DNA from: Escherichia virus TH40
Sequence record: MT446411.1
Direction: 5' to 3' (one strand)
DNA length: 64,000 bases
Shown: positions 15,552 through 64,000 of the stretch, in pieces
Numbering within the stretch: position 1 is the first letter of the stretch
How the letters are laid out: each line of letters starts with the position of its first letter
The notes under the pieces: generated by a model
Seen by the model: only the letters and a program-made list of their open reading frames with translations
What the model was told of the DNA's origin: nothing
Databases searched by the model: none
Translations under genes and position numbers: made by a program

Positions 15552-17807
15552 TCAAAGTTTACAGGCAGAGCAGTCTTCTGCTTTAGGAGCTTCGATTTCG
15601 TAATCGTCTGTACCAGAACCATCTCTAGTGTTATGATAATAAAGGTTTTTACCACCAAAATACCAGAAGTACATCAAGTCGTCAAGCATAACTGACATCG
15701 GAACTTTTCCTTTCGGATAATTCTGCGGGTCGTAATACGTATTTGCCGATGCTGACTGACAAATCCATTTCAACATAATCGCGACTTGAGTCAGATAAGG
15801 TTTGTTACCTTGCTTAGCCAGTACCCATGCGTAATCATACAATCCTTTATTGTGCTCGATATTTGGAACAACTTGATTAAAGGAACCTTCTTTACTTTCC
15901 TTGATACTTACTGGACCACGTGGAGGTTCGATACCGTTGGTACTATTTGAAACTTGGGAAGATGACTCACACGGCATAAGTGCTGATAATGTGCTATTAC
16001 GGATGCCATGTGCAACCAGGTCTTCCCGCAGCTGCGCCCAGTCACAAACGTAGTTTGGAGCTGCGATTTGGTCAATCTTTTTATTGTACCAGTCGATAGG
16101 TAATTCGCCTCGAGCCCAACGAGTGTCTGAATAATATTCGCAAGGTCCTTTTTCTTTGGCGAGCTTAATTGATGCACGGATAAGGCCATATTGTAATCTC
16201 TCAAACAGTTCATGCGTTAAATCGTTTGCATCGACATAGGAAGCGAAATTGCTTGCCAACCATGCAGCATAGTTAGTAACCCCGACACCCAAGTTGCGGC
16301 GTTTTTTGGCTTTCAGAGCTTCTTTAACCGGATAACCCTGGTAGTCCAACAGGTTATCAAGAGCACGAACTTGAACTTCGGCTAGCTCGTTAATCTTATC
16401 TTGGTCCTGCCAGTCAAAACTATCCAGAACAAATGCAGAGAGGGTACACAATCCGATTTCAGCGTCTTCGCTGTTTACATCAGTGGTCGGGATTGCAATT
16501 TCACAGCAAAGGTTTGATTGACGAATTGGAGCCTTATCACGGATGAACGGAGTGTAGTCATTCACATTATCGACGAACTGCGGATAAACCCTGGCTGTCC
16601 CGGAACGTTCGGTCATGAATAATTCGAACAGGTCTTTTGCTTTGATGCGCTTCTTACGAACCGTCGGGTCTTTTTCCAAGGCTTCATATAACTCACGGAA
16701 TTTATCCGGGTTATCAAAATATGAATAATATAATTCACCGCCAGCTTCGTGCGGACTAAACAATGTGATGTAATCATTCTTAGCCAGTCGTTCCATCATC
16801 AGGTTATTCAGCTGGACACCATAGTCCATATGTCTGATGCGGTTTTCTTCAACGCCCTTGTTGTTCTTCAGAACGAGTAAATTTTCAACTTCCAAATGCC
16901 AAATAGGATAATAAGCAGTAGCAGCGCCGCCACGGATTCCACCTTGTGAACATGATTTAACAGCCGTTTGGAAATGTTTCCAGAACGGAATAACACCAGT
17001 ATGCTTGACTTCACCCATACCGATTTTCGAACCTTCAGCACGAATCATGCCAACGTTGATACCAATACCTGCACGCTTGCTGATATATTCGATGATTGAA
17101 TTAGCAGTCTTATTAATTGACTTCAGGGAGTCCGCAGCTTCGATAACCACACACGAACTGAACTGTCGGGTAGGTGTTCTGGCGCCCGCCATGATAGGTG
17201 TGGGCAACGAAATCTGCTGCGTAGATACTGCATCATAAAAACGGCAAATGTGCTTCAGACGGTCCGTTGGTTCATCCTGGTGCAGTGCCATGCCGATGGC
17301 CATGATAGCGAACTGTGGAGTCTCATAGATTTTCCCAGTGGTTTTATCTTTAACCAGGTATTTCTCTTTAAGCTGCATCGCGCCTGCATAAGTCAGGTCA
17401 AAATCGCGTTCGTGCTTAATACGAGATTCCAGGTAAGTAATCTCTTCAGCTGAGTAGCTTGACAACAGCTCTGGGTCATATTTACCTTCATTAACACAAT
17501 AAGAAATCTGGTCAATAAAAGAACGTGGCTCAAACTGGCCATAAACATCTTTACGCAGAGCAAACATCGTAGCTTTGGCTGCAACATATTGATAATCCGG
17601 TTCTTCGACCGAGATAAGCCCAGCAGACACTTTGATGATAACCGTCTGAATATCGCGAGTAGTCATGCCATCGCGCAGATGTGGTTTGATTGTTTCGTAT
17701 AATTCATATGGGTCGATATTAGTTCCTTCACATGACCAGGAAAGAACTTTAATAATTTTCTGGCCATCAAAATCTTGGGATACACCACTACTTTTTTGTA
17801 CTTGCAT
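15552..17807 (-). CDS. nrdA: ribonucleotide reductase alpha subunit
   Basis: 751-aa ORF with class Ia large-subunit motifs. Confidence 0.95.
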   Translation of the reverse strand: MQVQKSSGVSQDFDGQKIIKVLSWSCEGTNIDPYELYETIKPHLRDGMTTRDIQTVIIKVSAGLISVEEPDYQYVAAKATMFALRKDVYGQFEPRSFIDQISYCVNEGKYDPELLSSYSAEEITYLESRIKHERDFDLTYAGAMQLKEKYLVKDKTTGKIYETPQFAIMAIGMALHQDEPTDRLKHICRFYDAVSTQQISLPTPIMAGARTPTRQFSSCVVIEAADSLKSINKTANSIIEYISKRAGIGINVGMIRAEGSKIGMGEVKHTGVIPFWKHFQTAVKSCSQGGIRGGAATAYYPIWHLEVENLLVLKNNKGVEENRIRHMDYGVQLNNLMMERLAKNDYITLFSPHEAGGELYYSYFDNPDKFRELYEALEKDPTVRKKRIKAKDLFELFMTERSGTARVYPQFVDNVNDYTPFIRDKAPIRQSNLCCEIAIPTTDVNSEDAEIGLCTLSAFVLDSFDWQDQDKINELAEVQVRALDNLLDYQGYPVKEALKAKKRRNLGVGVTNYAAWLASNFASYVDANDLTHELFERLQYGLIRASIKLAKEKGPCEYYSDTRWARGELPIDWYNKKIDQIAAPNYVCDWAQLREDLVAHGIRNSTLSALMPCESSSQVSNSTNGIEPPRGPVSIKESKEGSFNQVVPNIEHNKGLYDYAWVLAKQGNKPYLTQVAIMLKWICQSASANTYYDPQNYPKGKVPMSVMLDDLMYFWYFGGKNLYYHNTRDGSGTDDYEIEAPKAEDCSACKL

Positions 17808-17840
17808 GTTTTCCTCTATAGTTCAAAAGGGTTGGGAACC

Positions 17841-18086
17841 TTAAATTGTCTCTGGTAGTTCCGAAGTCATTTCATCATTATATTCTTCTTCTGACTGGAC
17901 AGTGATGTCAAAATATGACTGGACGTCACCGGCTGAATCATGACAGTAGACACGTTCATGTCGTTTGGCCAGAAATTTGATTCCGTCAATAGTGATATAA
18001 GAATTTGGTGCAGGTAAATCCTGTTCGGTAAATTGTGGCATTTCAAAAATGACTTCGCCTGACTGGCGTTTAAATCGTAAATTCAT
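17841..18086 (-). CDS. hypothetical protein
   Basis: 81-aa ORF between td and nrdA. Confidence 0.45.
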   Translation of the reverse strand: MNLRFKRQSGEVIFEMPQFTEQDLPAPNSYITIDGIKFLAKRHERVYCHDSAGDVQSYFDITVQSEEEYNDEMTSELPETI

Positions 18087-60236: not shown

Positions 60237-60470
60237 TTAAACTACTGGGGTAGGCGTAAACATCGCCGCGTTCTTAGTTCGCCAATCAGCTGCACTAGAC
60301 GCTACGGTGACATAAGCGGCCTTTTCGGAAGGAAAAGTCTGATAGTGTGCATTCGCAATACGATGCTCATTTGAATAGATTTCAAACGGAACAGATACTT
60401 CAACACCTTTAACTTCTTTACCTTCACCAGCTGGATGCGTAAAGGTTTTGATATTAACGAAACCACCCAT
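60237..60470 (-). CDS. soc: small outer capsid protein
   Basis: 77 aa; VNIKTF and AHYQTFPSEKAAY match T4 Soc as recalled. Confidence 0.8.
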   Translation of the reverse strand: MGGFVNIKTFTHPAGEGKEVKGVEVSVPFEIYSNEHRIANAHYQTFPSEKAAYVTVASSAADWRTKNAAMFTPTPVV

Positions 60471-60511
60471 AATTAACTCCTTTGTTGTTTAATTACGGGT
60501 GTATTTATAAC

Positions 60512-61030
60512 TTAATAACCCCGGTCCTGACGAGCGAAGTTTTCAGCATTTTTCAGGTAATACAGTTTAAAGATTTCTTCTGCTGACAGACCAAGACCAT
60601 GGAACATGTTCAGAACAAAGTGCAGGATGTCAATCATCTCAAATTTAATTTCGAGCTGGTCTTCAGGAGACAACTCATCAATACGACGATTACGGAATTC
60701 AGCATGTTGGGCTTTCCACGGTTTCCAACAACTTGAGGCTGCTTTCTCGCCATTAGACATACCCCCGAGAGAAGTCAGAAGTTCACGGAATTCATCATCG
60801 ACATAATCTTTCTGGTTGCGAAGCCATGCAACAACATCACCTGCAGTAGCCAATTCATCTGGATGTGAGTTATATTCAGGTTTTTCGGTAGCCAGACGAA
60901 CTTGCAATGATTTCTGCATATCAAGCATAATCTGCAGCGGGTCAATACCTTTTGTAATTGCATTGTCATAAGCCAGAGCAGCTTTATCAACACCGGCAAT
61001 CAGTTGTGAACATTCATTAAAATGAGCCAT
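60512..61030 (-). CDS. 56: dCTP pyrophosphatase (MazG-like), 172 aa from ATG 61028-61030
   Basis: MAHFNEC...DPLQIMLDMQ...FRELLTSLGGMSNGEK...EDQLEIKFE...FHFVLNMF...EEIFKLYYLKN...FARQDRGY matches T4 gp56 as recalled. Confidence 0.9.
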   Translation of the reverse strand: MAHFNECSQLIAGVDKAALAYDNAITKGIDPLQIMLDMQKSLQVRLATEKPEYNSHPDELATAGDVVAWLRNQKDYVDDEFRELLTSLGGMSNGEKAASSCWKPWKAQHAEFRNRRIDELSPEDQLEIKFEMIDILHFVLNMFHGLGLSAEEIFKLYYLKNAENFARQDRGY

Positions 61031-61091
61031 TATATTTTTCCTTATCAATTCATGTTGTTTTGTATGTTAATTATATCATATTGGTTTGAAG

Positions 61092-61099
61092 CATAAATA
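61092..61099 (+). promoter_or_regulatory. late-promoter-like element (CATAAATA)
   Basis: 7 of 8 match to TATAAATA, 17 bp upstream of ATG 61116. Confidence 0.3.
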
Positions 61100-61115
61100 C
61101 AAGAAAGGAGGATAT

Positions 61116-61313
61116 ATGCTAAAACTATCTAGTCTAATTCAAGCCATCAAAGACAGTCGTAAGCGAACAATTCTGGTCCTTTCGATACTCTGTTTAGTTC
61201 TACTCTGGAACTTCGTTGTTGCCCCTGTTGCATTGACACATGGTGTTATATTACCAGTCATTGCACTCGAATCAGTTGTAGATATTTTACTGGCATTAAT
61301 CGGCCTTATATAG
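61116..61313 (+). CDS. small membrane protein (65 aa) on the opposite strand
   Basis: AAGGAGGA SD; MLKLSSLIQAIKDSRKRTILVLSILCLVLLWNFVVAPVALTHGVILPVIALESVVDILLALIGLI; two predicted TM helices. Confidence 0.45.
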   Translation: MLKLSSLIQAIKDSRKRTILVLSILCLVLLWNFVVAPVALTHGVILPVIALESVVDILLALIGLI

Positions 61314-61315
61314 AT

Positions 61316-61345
61316 GGAATAATGTGAATATTATTCCATCGGATT
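61316..61345 (+). terminator. hairpin after the plus-strand small gene
   Basis: GGAATAAT-gtgaat-ATTATTCC 3 nt after the stop; weak T-tract. Confidence 0.35.
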
Positions 61346-61372
61346 TGGAAATTAACCAGTAAGAAAGACAAG

Positions 61373-61404
61373 AAACATCATGGACTTTTTAGCCCATGAT
61401 GTTT
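61373..61404. terminator. 11-bp perfect inverted repeat, terminator candidate downstream of gene 61
   Basis: AAACATCATGG-10 nt-CCATGATGTTT with T-rich flanks on both strands. Confidence 0.4.
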
Positions 61405-61431
61405 TTCTGCGGAACTTACCGGAATTCCTTC

Positions 61432-62460
61432 CTAAACTTTTGCGTACTTCGAAAGTCGCATTCTTGCCATCAACCCTTGAGCAACGTTATCGGCCATATA
61501 TGATTCGATTTGTTCAGGGGTTGCACCCTCCGATTTAACCATCTCATTTATGTCTTTCGTATGCCATGGTGCATTGTCCCAGAACATAACAGCTTCGCCA
61601 GCTTCAACGAGTTTCTTCATACGTTTAATCGTATCCGGATGTCTTGGCTCGTTGTCCATTACCCATACTCGGGTTTCAGCATAAGGAACGGATTCCAATG
61701 CTAATGTTCCGCCGGTTATCGCAATGCTGTTAGGGATAAACAAACTATCAATCGGACCTTCCATTACCCACACGCGCTTGCGCTCATCAATCTTGTCTAC
61801 TCCATAGACTTTTGAAGCTTCTGGGTGAGCTTTGATTGTGATATATTTTTGTGGTGCATCTTTGCGAAGAGCTCGTCCTTGGAAAGATTCGATTTCTTTT
61901 TTGCCGTTGAAGATAGGAATAACCAAGCGTGGTTCATTCGTTTCATTCTTATACGTCCCAGGATTAACGGAGTTAACTAATGCAGGCCATTTGTTTGTAA
62001 ACCATAACCGGTTCCAAACATTGCTCGGAATACACCGACTTTTTACATACTTAACTATCGGATACTCTTCTGGTAAAGTATCGATTCTTTCACAAAAAGC
62101 AAGCTCTTCAATAACCGGAGTTTTTTCTGGTTCTTTCGGAGCTTCTGCAACTTCATTACGTTGTCGACCGAAGGCATTCTCCTTGTACTTCTCGACCATA
62201 TATTCCCGGTGCAAATCCGGCTCAAACTCTTTTATGTATTTGCTTATATGCGTGGAGTAGTCACAGTTAAAACATTTCACGTAAACCGCACCATCAGACG
62301 GATTGGTATACGCCCAGAATCGAGCCTTGTGCGAATCTTTCTGGGAGTCACCACAAACCTTGCAACGACAGTTTGCCTTAAATGTGCTCCCGGTGACTTC
62401 TCTATAACGTGGTTGATACGATAAAGCTCTGACTGCAAATTCTCTATCAATATATGACAT
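61432..62460 (-). CDS. 61: DNA primase
   Basis: 342 aa; N-terminal zinc-binding CRCKVCGDS...CFNCDYS; Toprim-like MEGPIDSL and VMDNEPRHPD. Confidence 0.9.
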   Translation of the reverse strand: MSYIDREFAVRALSYQPRYREVTGSTFKANCRCKVCGDSQKDSHKARFWAYTNPSDGAVYVKCFNCDYSTHISKYIKEFEPDLHREYMVEKYKENAFGRQRNEVAEAPKEPEKTPVIEELAFCERIDTLPEEYPIVKYVKSRCIPSNVWNRLWFTNKWPALVNSVNPGTYKNETNEPRLVIPIFNGKKEIESFQGRALRKDAPQKYITIKAHPEASKVYGVDKIDERKRVWVMEGPIDSLFIPNSIAITGGTLALESVPYAETRVWVMDNEPRHPDTIKRMKKLVEAGEAVMFWDNAPWHTKDINEMVKSEGATPEQIESYMADNVAQGLMARMRLSKYAKV

Positions 62461-62492: not shown

Positions 62493-62660
62493 TTATACTG
62501 TAGGTTTATCGTCTTTATTCTTACGCTTTTTTGATGGGATTTGTTCAGGGCCTTTATTGACAACTGCCCCGGAAGTGGTACCTGTTGCGATATTAGTTGG
62601 GTTTCCACCTGCATCACCGGCAACCATATCTTCATTGATAAAATCTTTGAATGTTTTCAT
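62493..62660 (-). CDS. small protein (55 aa)
   Basis: Hand-translated MKTFKDFINEDMVAGDAGGNPTNIATGTTSGAVVNKGPEQIPSKKRKNKDDKPTV; AAGGGGGGTGTT SD. Confidence 0.4.
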   Translation of the reverse strand: MKTFKDFINEDMVAGDAGGNPTNIATGTTSGAVVNKGPEQIPSKKRKNKDDKPTV

Positions 62661-62680
62661 AACACCCCCCTTTCCGCTAT

Positions 62681-62872
62681 TTATACAACGAAGATAGCTT
62701 TATCGCCATTTGCATCAGTCACTTCATAAGTGTCTTCATGATACAACGGAATAATCCAGGTAACACCATCATCAGCGATAACATGGATTGCTTCTTGGTC
62801 TTGCGACACGATTTCATATTCTTCAAAAATCTGGAAGACCGAAATCTTAGAGCCCGTACACATTGCACTCAT
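62681..62872 (-). CDS. hypothetical protein
   Basis: 63-aa ORF in array. Confidence 0.4.
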   Translation of the reverse strand: MSAMCTGSKISVFQIFEEYEIVSQDQEAIHVIADDGVTWIIPLYHEDTYEVTDANGDKAIFVV

Positions 62873-63069: not shown

Positions 63070-63420
63070 TTAACCTCGCTTCATGAAGGCATTAAAAATC
63101 TGGTCGTCGACAGACTGTTCTTGAGCTTTGCCTACCCTATTCAAAATGTCATTCGCTGCATCAGATAACATGACCCCAATTTCAGGGTTTCCAGTTATCC
63201 ATGCTGCACAATCGCGTACATTCTTTTTATCAAATGGATAACCGCGAGTATCTTCATAAGGCCCATTCATTACCAGGAATGAGCGAGCCTTTATGATAAT
63301 ATCATCTTTAACGATAATATAACCAATCGCTTGATTAAACCGAGGGTCGCGGAATTCATAATGAGCATTACCATCATTATTGCTCGCCAGTTCAAAATTC
63401 AGAAAATTGTAATCATTCAT
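63070..63420 (-). CDS. hypothetical protein, paralogue of 63422..63859
   Basis: 116 aa; C-terminus SVDDQIFNAFMKRG shared with upstream gene. Confidence 0.45.
   Translation of the reverse strand: MNDYNFLNFELASNNDGNAHYEFRDPRFNQAIGYIIVKDDIIIKARSFLVMNGPYEDTRGYPFDKKNVRDCAAWITGNPEIGVMLSDAANDILNRVGKAQEQSVDDQIFNAFMKRG
63075..63111 (-). repeat. 37-bp direct repeat at gene 3' end, copy 1
   Basis: Matches 63427..63463 with 2 mismatches. Confidence 0.8.
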
Positions 63421-63421
63421 A

Positions 63422-63859
63422 CTAATCTCGCTTCATGAAGGCATTAAAAATTTGGTCGTCAACTGAATAAACAGGATTTTCCAGAATTTTCAAAAGACTG
63501 TTTTTGATGTACTTGCCAGGGATATCCATATTAATGACACCATTATTCAATTCATTGTCTGGATTGATGTCTTTAAATTCAAACCCTTCAAACTCAACCT
63601 TGTCAGGAATACCATCAGCGAAAAAATAAACCAATTGGTGCATTGTATTGCGCGAAAATAATTTAGACTTGACTGCAATAAGTTCTTGCCAATGGTTTAA
63701 TTCTTTGTTAAGAAGCTTATGAGCAAACGTAATTCTATCATCACTATCAACAAGAAAATAACCCAGGTATTGAATTTCGTCGCTCCAAAACACCCGGTAT
63801 GCCTGTGCATTTGGATTTTTACAGCGAAGTTTTTTGATAACTAAATTTCTGTTAATCAT
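63422..63859 (-). CDS. hypothetical protein (145 aa from ATG 63857-63859), paralogue of 63070..63420
   Basis: GGTGAATAAA then ATG; C-terminus SVDDQIFNAFMKRD. Confidence 0.45.
   Translation of the reverse strand: MINRNLVIKKLRCKNPNAQAYRVFWSDEIQYLGYFLVDSDDRITFAHKLLNKELNHWQELIAVKSKLFSRNTMHQLVYFFADGIPDKVEFEGFEFKDINPDNELNNGVINMDIPGKYIKNSLLKILENPVYSVDDQIFNAFMKRD
63427..63463 (-). repeat. 37-bp direct repeat at gene 3' end, copy 2
   Basis: See copy 1. Confidence 0.8.
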
Positions 63860-63860
63860 T

Positions 63861-64000
63861 TTATTCACCTGTAACCCATTGAACAATTTTGCTATTGTCA
63901 AATGAAGCATCGCAATACAGAACATAGTTATACTGCATAACGTCACCAGAAGTCAATTGGTCAGATACTTCTTTAACCATATCAGGGCGGTCGCGTTTAG
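63861..64000 (-). CDS. hypothetical protein, C-terminal fragment (5' end beyond window)
   Basis: Open frame ending ...VMQYNYVLYCDASFDNSKIVQWVTGE at stop 63861-63863. Confidence 0.35.
   Translation of the reverse strand, partial: KRDRPDMVKEVSDQLTSGDVMQYNYVLYCDASFDNSKIVQWVTGE

Follow-up and report, generated by a model that had tools for sequence, protein, structure and literature searches.

The interval between genes 56 and 61 of a T4-like Gaprivervirus: a conserved small gene for a predicted membrane protein and the remnant of a paralogue

In the 64,000-nt stretch of Escherichia virus TH40 DNA analysed here (sequence record MT446411.1; hereafter the window), genes 56 and 61 are separated by a short interval with a lone ORF on the opposite strand. 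This raises the question of whether the small ORF takes the place of genes that T4 carries there, and of what it might encode. The source phage is T4-like and belongs to the genus Gaprivervirus, and the 2.1 kb around the gap show 98.4% identity to Escherichia phage EAWsc9 and 93% to Shigella phage SP18. The gap, put at about 400 bp in a preliminary description of this DNA, measures 401 bp (61031-61431), and its neighbours are soc, 56, 61 and 61.1 (Table 1). It holds a single plus-strand ORF, as described earlier, which is the sole conserved ORF there; in EAWsc9 every annotated neighbour of this ORF lies on the opposite strand. The Shine-Dalgarno sequence and the late-promoter-like element reported upstream of the ORF are both present, as are the two hairpins 3′ of it, one of them an 11-bp perfect inverted repeat. 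An Rfam search of the region gave no family at gathering score, only sub-threshold chance matches, and the region holds no tRNAs. The features first noticed in the sequence were thus accurate, whereas the comparison with T4 that accompanied them was mostly mistaken.

Table 1. Positions in the window of the features discussed in the text
Feature	Position	Strand	Remarks
soc	60237-60470	-	
Gene 56 (dCTPase/dUTPase), left border of the gap	60512-61030	-	68% identity to T4 gp56; phrog_173, 5e-45; Pfam dUTPase_2
Predicted MotA-type middle promoter of gene 56	61096-61070	-	TTATGCTTCA, 11 nt, TATAAT
Candidate MotA box TATGCTTCA	61095-61087	-	followed by 11-nt spacer and -10 element TATAAT (61075-61070)
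Late-promoter-like box CATAAATA	61092-61099	+	7 of 8 positions as in T4 consensus TATAAATA; mismatch at -13
Shine-Dalgarno sequence AAGGAGGA	61105-61112	+	3 nt (TAT, 61113-61115) ahead of ATG
Small ORF (copy A), 65 aa, phrog_2024, predicted single-pass inner-membrane protein	61116-61313	+	ATG at 61116, TAG ending at 61313; 65 codons
Hairpin I2	61313-61340		11-bp perfect arms (61313-61323 / 61330-61340), 6-nt loop
Pseudogene remnant of second phrog_2024 paralogue (copy B)	61322-61435	+	aligned to the intact B genes of VR25 and VR26
Hairpin I1	61373-61404		arms of 14 nt (61373-61386 / 61391-61404), 93% complementary; 5 G-C pairs
Gene 61 (DNA primase), right border of the gap	61432-62460	-	60% full-length identity to T4 gp61; phrog_47, 9e-94
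sp, last 45 codons	63864-63998	-	rest beyond the window end at 64000

Gene order around gene 61 and spread of the small gene

In the T4 reference the genes run soc-segF-56-dam, followed by 309 unannotated bp and then by 61-61.1-61.2-sp-61.4-dmd-41. The preliminary description had put genes 61.1 to 61.5, including dmd and sp, together with dam between genes 61 and 56 of T4, which is right for dam only: the 61.x genes, sp and dmd are placed between 61 and 41. The right side of gene 61 in the window likewise carries 61.1 and 61.4 homologues and the 3′ part of sp. It had further been claimed that a dmd-type antitoxin is missing here. In both EAWsc9 and SP18, sp and then dmd are found at the corresponding place, and the EAWsc9 dmd would fall about 0.5 kb past the window end. 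Since sp itself is cut by the end of the window and dmd follows just beyond in EAWsc9, there is no sign that dmd is missing.

The dam gene, by contrast, was found neither in the gap nor in the rest of the 64-kb window. The dam-less order of gene 56, small ORF and gene 61 is the common layout, shared with Mosigvirus JK36, T6, Jiaodavirus JD18, Gelderlandvirus STP4-a and Dhakavirus, and since T4 has a homologue of the small ORF in its dam-61 gap, the small ORF replaces nothing. An odd genome architecture and a phage without the Dmd antitoxin, both implied earlier, are therefore notions that do not stand. On balance, the gap would be a compact unit of regulatory and coding sequence, of a kind typical for enterobacterial T4-like phages.

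The protein encoded by the small ORF (copy A) matches the phrog_2024 profile with an E-value of 6.4e-26, its residues 1-65 falling on profile positions 1-65, and the second paralogue (copy B, see below) as well as distant copies also match this profile over their full length. In its length, its slot and its convergence with the primase gene, copy A is like other phrog_2024 entries, e.g. RB32ORF030w and JD18 gp010; there is no substantive difference from them, apart from an Asp at position 13 where A-type relatives nearly always have Gly (AIKG). The exact copy A sequence is already public on nine contigs. Copy A is a member, in its usual place, of a catalogued but uncharacterised family.

Homologues of copy A were detected by tblastn in 692 phage records. 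An exhaustive profile search of 1.8 billion representative proteins returned seven matches only, all of them small proteins in a T4-like context or fragments, of which the weakest (E 6e-5 to 5e-4; P0076 is among them) carry the shared motif. As P0076, from a divergent T4-like contig, is encoded in the same slot between genes 56 and 61, its homology is confirmed by synteny, and its use as a query (182 records) added Jiaoda-, Gelderland- and Moonvirus phages. In all, hundreds of T4-like genomes carry a copy located between 56 (or dam) and 61 and convergent with 61; they represent at least eight genera (Tequatro-, Mosig-, Gapriver-, Dhaka-, Jiaoda-, Gelderland-, Moon- and Marfavirus), and metagenomic contigs have such a copy as well. 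The slot was seen in the window, T4, T6, fPS-65, JK36, NC-G, JS10, JD18, STP4-a, CF1, Marfa and the metagenomic contig L012, and at least one copy is kept by each enterobacterial T4-like genus examined. The T4 homologue, a plus-strand ORF of 66 codons (17738-17938) whose stop codon overlaps that of gene 61, is unannotated in AF158101 and NC_000866 and was called by the automatic annotation of a T4 derivative. The phrog_2024 gene is also absent from the reference annotations of JS10 and SP18, such that a conserved small gene family appears to have been overlooked in all three references.

Several observations indicate that the ORF is translated. Between genera, dN/dS amounts to 0.11-0.42 with synonymous sites saturated, and within genera to 0.18-0.68, values that indicate purifying selection. 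Codon position 2 is the least variable in the alignment, which fits a coding sequence, and intact copies are 61-67 aa long, database members that are shorter or longer having the appearance of truncated or frameshifted versions. The small ORF is therefore almost certainly a real protein-coding gene. As for its function, copy A has no match in Pfam (E up to 10) or NCBIfam, phrog_2024 being without a model in either collection, and no characterised relative was identified among PDB sequences or PADLOC defence models; a fold search of BFVD returned family members and weak helical look-alikes only. Full-text searches of the literature on T4 ribosome profiling, small ORFs, start-site mapping, CRISPRi-ART and transposon screens gave nothing on the small ORF, and the HIDEN-SEQ preprint does not mention the locus. 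A paper on the ASEC2201 'holin' was set aside, as it deals with an unrelated family. So was the label 'putative head morphogenesis protein' given to the T6 copy, which comes from a record that also names Soc a terminase subunit and gp56 a ferredoxin.

Expression signals and the origin of the downstream spacer

The small ORF and gene 56 diverge from an 85-bp region that may contain a promoter for each. On the gene 56 side, a MotA-type middle promoter would drive transcription leftward. By a consensus attributed to Hinton (2010), a MotA box reads (a/t)(a/t)(a/t)TGCTT(t/c)A and precedes a sigma-70 -10 element by about 12 bp, and the element ahead of gene 56 fits this description. The combination TGCTTYA-N10-13-TANNNT occurs seven times in the window against 1.8 expected, a number reached in no shuffle, and five of the seven occurrences are on the early strand. 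This promoter layout recurs in the divergent contig L012. The MotA box and the late box overlap by 4 bp on opposite strands, which means that the late-box C at -13 pairs with the G of the opposite-strand TGCTT core. The overlap is not conserved, since dam intervenes in T4 and the boxes are offset in L012.

On the other side, a gp55-type late promoter at CATAAATA would drive a short rightward mRNA encoding the 65-aa phrog_2024 protein. The single departure of this box from the consensus is at the position that is the least conserved in T4-type late promoters (PMC2988020; PMC1524935). An ATAAATA core is located 12-21 nt 5′ of the start codon in six of the nine lineages examined, preceded at -13 by C, G or A; Gelderlandvirus and Moonvirus have TATTAAATA in its stead, and in Dhakavirus NC-G a CATAAATA box lies about 220 nt upstream of the copy A start, ahead of a frameshifted B copy. 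In all lineages a GGAGG or GGAG motif stands at equal distance from the start. While the flanking sequence is conserved in none of these lineages, the ribosome-binding site has been kept and so has, in most of them, the NATAAATA late-promoter box. In the window as a whole ATAAATA is depleted (11 occurrences versus 20.4 expected), and 9 of the 11 belong to a full TATAAATA, one of which precedes the late gene soc.

Early and middle transcripts of T4 are of a single polarity (PMC2988020), and copy A is the only plus-strand gene amid minus-strand early and middle genes, so that a gene on this strand would be expected to be late. Together with the box, this makes it quite likely that copy A is transcribed late. 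The strength of the promoter is uncertain, given that the consensus T at -13 is present in none of the nine lineages, that TATTAAATA variants exist and that NC-G has no box nearby. A start about 6 nt past the late box would leave a leader of only about 11 nt. For T4, the corresponding prediction is that the unannotated ORF has a late start near 17722; 150 phage start sites have been reported for T4 from dRNA-seq.

Downstream of copy A, the sequence up to gene 61 has an origin of its own. In VR25 and VR26, an intact copy B stands between copy A and gene 61; it has 66 codons and 35% identity to A, starts 8 nt past the A stop, and its terminal TAA overlaps the stop codon of gene 61. The 119-bp spacer of the window aligns base for base with copy B of these two phages, with three lesions: a TGA directly after the ATG at 61322 and two deletions, one of 2 bp and one of 85 bp, the latter between TTAC(C/T)GG repeats. 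What has been kept at the 3′ end are the last five codons with the TAA (61433-61435), and here too the TAA overlaps the stop codon of gene 61. The nonsense codon and the 2-bp deletion recur in VR20, and both deletions in EAWsc9, while SP18 has lost the 5′ half of copy B through an independent deletion of 97 bp. When the copy B protein was searched by tblastn, at least 80% of it was matched in 101 of 117 phage records, and among the matches listed all adjoin the primase gene. By this alignment the spacer is a decayed copy B. A dedicated regulatory insert, which we also considered, is ruled out by the codon-for-codon correspondence with the intact VR25/VR26 gene.

Both hairpins are made of copy B remains. 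The first base of hairpin I2 is also the final one of the ORF A stop, and this hairpin spans the former copy B start codon, and hairpin I1 spans the former codons 19-30 or so. Their calculated stabilities are -13.5 and -17.3 kcal/mol in the window, compared with -9.2 and -9.7 kcal/mol, respectively, in the intact gene of VR25, and both stems are in general weaker in the intact copy B gene and stronger in the pseudogene lineages. All of the changes specific to the lineage of the window perfect the palindromes, and the intergenic tail folds much more stably than shuffled sequence (z = -6.7 for the plus and -8.7 for the minus strand). Hairpin I2, the loop of which is inverted in EAWsc9, is not followed by a T-run and does not qualify as an intrinsic terminator. 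Hairpin I1 is the sole terminator-like site in the gap, with a T-rich tail on the minus strand according to the terminator scan and with TTTTTCTG following on the plus-strand side. It is a predicted bidirectional intrinsic terminator, and probably ends both of the convergent transcripts, i.e. the late rightward one of ORF A and the leftward one of gene 61. The case shows that hairpins separating two convergent genes can be what remains of a decaying paralogue.

Membrane topology and possible roles

The preliminary description had predicted two transmembrane (TM) helices. By a simple Hessa-scale sum, which is a plain measure of hydrophobicity, only one segment is membrane-competent, at about residues 18-41 (dG -2.4 kcal/mol). 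In every subfamily the sum disfavours the C-terminal hydrophobic stretch as a TM helix (+3.1 kcal/mol here, +6 to +13 in relatives). An AlphaFold2 model of medium confidence, based on an 11-sequence alignment (mean pLDDT 71.6), has helices at residues 2-13 and 15-41, then a loop, then a 13-residue helix at 51-63. The N-terminus is rich in Lys and Arg (net charge +4 to +5); the C-terminal part, with a net charge of -2, is devoid of basic residues and ends with ...VVDILLALIGLI (...ALIGLI). An N-in/C-out single-pass topology is thus fairly likely, and copy A appears to cross the inner membrane once and to end in a short periplasmic tail, rather than being a two-helix protein or a holin. The idea of a late-expressed small membrane protein, put forward earlier, is consistent with the late strand, the NATAAATA box, the ribosome-binding site and the one strong TM segment.

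Five residues (W31, P37, G43, P47 and L51) are invariant across all lineages, and conservation is highest in the outer half of the TM segment (0.50) and in the loop (0.49) and lowest in the inner half (0.23). A basic N-terminus, a single TM helix, residues conserved mainly next to the periplasm, and a short tail that is rich in Pro and has an acidic amphipathic helix would together suit a late inner-membrane microprotein that binds a partner. In the explanation that we favour, the Lys/Arg-rich N-terminus would remain in the cytoplasm, a single helix would cross the membrane, and a tail of about 24 residues, made of a Pro-containing turn and a short acidic amphipathic helix, would be exposed in the periplasm. 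The motif W-N-F/Y...P...H-G...P...L-D/E could then contact a partner where the inner membrane faces the periplasm, and the protein might modulate a late envelope event without being a pore-former itself. Taken as a whole, with the middle and late promoters and the hairpins derived from copy B, this explanation seems to us somewhat more probable than not. A part in lysis timing, lysis inhibition or superinfection exclusion, the late envelope events that come to mind first, is a tentative suggestion; the copy A gene is not adjacent to lysis genes. It would be more speculative still to regard phrog_2024 as a quasi-core late microprotein facing the periplasm, which would tune lysis inhibition, lysis timing or exclusion by binding a membrane partner, with types A, B and C adapted to different partners or hosts.

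Other explanations have to be weighed against this one. The protein might be a holin or pinholin, i.e. a small membrane protein, made late, whose oligomers permeabilise the inner membrane. It is small, hydrophobic and probably late, the acidic residues E52 and D55 share one face of the C-terminal helix, and the word appears in the records of EAWsc9 ('holin family protein'), UniProt A0A482MZV5 ('Holin') and Klebsiella phage KP1079 ('putative holin'). Nearly all other records say 'hypothetical', so that these labels look like guesses from hydrophobicity; they seem unfounded and should not spread. None of 11 family members matched a Pfam holin family at E up to 10, nor was there any NCBIfam match. 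A charged hydrophilic C-terminal tail is absent, the protein ending ...ALIGLI, and the second hydrophobic segment is not membrane-competent, subfamilies B and C clearly being without a TM helix there. Moreover, the gene sits amid replication genes, away from the endolysin, spanin and t genes, and T4-like phages already possess the T holin. Altogether a holin is very improbable. Hardly more probable is that the peptide is incidental, and that what counts is late rightward transcription, which would run into, or be antisense to, the early and middle transcripts from gene 61 to gene 56 and the oriA-type primer promoter and thereby silence them late in infection. In all genera the ORF invariably converges on gene 61 and abuts or overlaps its stop codon, the late box of the window physically overlaps the MotA box of gene 56, and in T4 the gene 56 transcript doubles as the oriA primer, according to a note in the reference record. 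The amino acids, however, are conserved despite saturated synonymous sites (see the between-genera dN/dS above), intact copies keep their length, ribosome-binding site and residue motif, and the overlap of the two boxes is absent from T4 and L012. An effect at the RNA level may coexist with the protein but cannot account for constraint on the protein itself.

A late membrane factor acting outside lysis and exclusion is an unlikely alternative to the envelope role, and would take one of two forms: an anchor or chaperone at the inner membrane for prohead initiation (portal gp20/gp40), or a neutraliser of a host membrane protein or of a membrane-acting defence system. The presence of a copy in every enterobacterial T4-like genus examined would suit a housekeeping or broad host-targeting role, and the conserved motif close to the periplasm would suit the binding of a host or phage membrane protein. 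Against this, no similarity to characterised proteins was found in PDB, PADLOC or BFVD, and copy number is labile, with paralogue B lost repeatedly and some copies frameshifted or trimmed, which is more typical of accessory genes. Two further candidates were rejected, namely a type I toxin of the Ldr/Hok kind (a single one of 11 members hits Ldr_toxin, with a sub-threshold E of 0.1, and no Rfam family is present at gathering score) and membership of the Imm or Spackle families (no Pfam match at E up to 10; sp is a separate gene).

Comparison with known systems

The late membrane microprotein proposed here belongs to a family that was already catalogued, and what is mildly new comes down to two points: the hairpins derive from a pseudogene, and the T4 reference leaves its own copy unannotated. 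Its size, its predicted location in the inner membrane and its probable lateness are shared with class II holins and pinholins, a label that a few records use. The S21-68 pinholin of phage 21, for example, has about 70 aa and two TM domains. Copy A differs from this class in having one autonomous TM segment, no match to a holin family and a position outside the lysis cassette, and the T holin is unrelated to it. Imm, Sp (spackle) and RI are likewise small T4-type proteins of the inner membrane or periplasm, acting on superinfection and lysis timing. Copy A has no sequence similarity to them, and sp is encoded about 2.5 kb away, beyond gene 61. Imm and Sp are products of early genes on the early strand, unlike copy A, the gene of which is on the late-only strand. 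With MgrB and AcrZ there is no homology but a functional analogy only, the partner of copy A being suggested by the conservation pattern alone: both are proteins of about 50-65 aa with a single N-in/C-out TM helix, in which residues at the periplasmic interface bind a larger membrane protein, and copy A may work in a similar manner.

Variation of the small ORF and of the neighbouring palindrome

The small ORF between gene 56 and gene 61 (primase), an A-type phrog_2024 member, encodes Asp at codon 13 (window 61152-61154), where nearly all A-type members have Gly within an AIKG motif; the exact Asp-13 variant of the protein was present on 9 public contigs. Further changes were found in relatives. 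That is, the ATG start codon is replaced by ATT in T6 (L010 1492-1494), the ECCR664 copy (L009 about 2456-2650) carries a frameshift, and the BEU50 copy (L008 2501-2686) has lost 3 codons through a deletion within the transmembrane segment. Between the arms of the perfect 11-bp palindrome lies a 6-nt loop that reads GTGAAT in the window (61324-61329) and ATTCAC in EAWsc9 (L001 3925-3930), a relative with 98% identity, i.e. the loop is inverted; the arms are the same in both. This looks like the product of template switching or loop inversion at the hairpin.

Late-promoter motifs and genes to the right of gene 61

Two of the perfect copies of the late-promoter motif in the window are listed in the table. 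The one ahead of soc matches what is expected for a late capsid gene, and served as a positive control for the motif in this genome. The other would be a predicted late promoter ahead of a gene in the early/middle cluster, and would lead to late transcription of gene 61 as well. Over its retained part, Sp shares 98% identity with the EAWsc9 protein and 64% with that of T4. Two neighbouring ORFs share the C-terminal motif SVDDQIFNAFMKR(G/D) and appear to be tandem paralogues with a conserved tail in common; the C-terminus of T4 gp61.2 also has a match at window 63073-63114.

Features in the window and phrog_2024 copies in reference genomes
Feature	Coordinates	Strand	Remark
TATAAATA, perfect	60502-60509	-	31 nt upstream of soc
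61.1 homologue	62493-62660	-	
TATAAATA, perfect	62678-62685	-	17 nt upstream of 61.1 homologue
ORF ending in SVDDQIFNAFMKR(G/D)	63070-63420	-	
ORF ending in SVDDQIFNAFMKR(G/D)	63422-63946	-	adjacent to 63070-63420 ORF
sp (spackle), last 45 codons	63864-63998	-	interrupted by window end
Intact phrog_2024 ORF, T4	NC_000866.4 17738-17938 (= L003 3739-3939)	+	unannotated in AF158101 and NC_000866
Intact phrog_2024 ORF, JS10	NC_012741 15341-15538		adjoins gene 61; absent from reference annotation
Intact phrog_2024 ORF, SP18	GQ981382 about 15701-15898		adjoins gene 61; absent from reference annotation

phrog_2024 copies in other lineages

The array of A- and B-type paralogues is rearranged or lost in different ways by lineage. 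In Dhakavirus NC-G (L021 1060-1480) the A/B order is reversed: a late box and a ribosome-binding site stand ahead of a B-type copy that carries a frameshift, and an intact A-type copy comes next, adjoining gene 61. JS10, of the same genus, has the B copy only. A phrog_2024 ORF beside gene 61 is annotated in hundreds of relatives, yet not in the T4, JS10 and SP18 references; in T4, the stop codons of this ORF and of gene 61 overlap.
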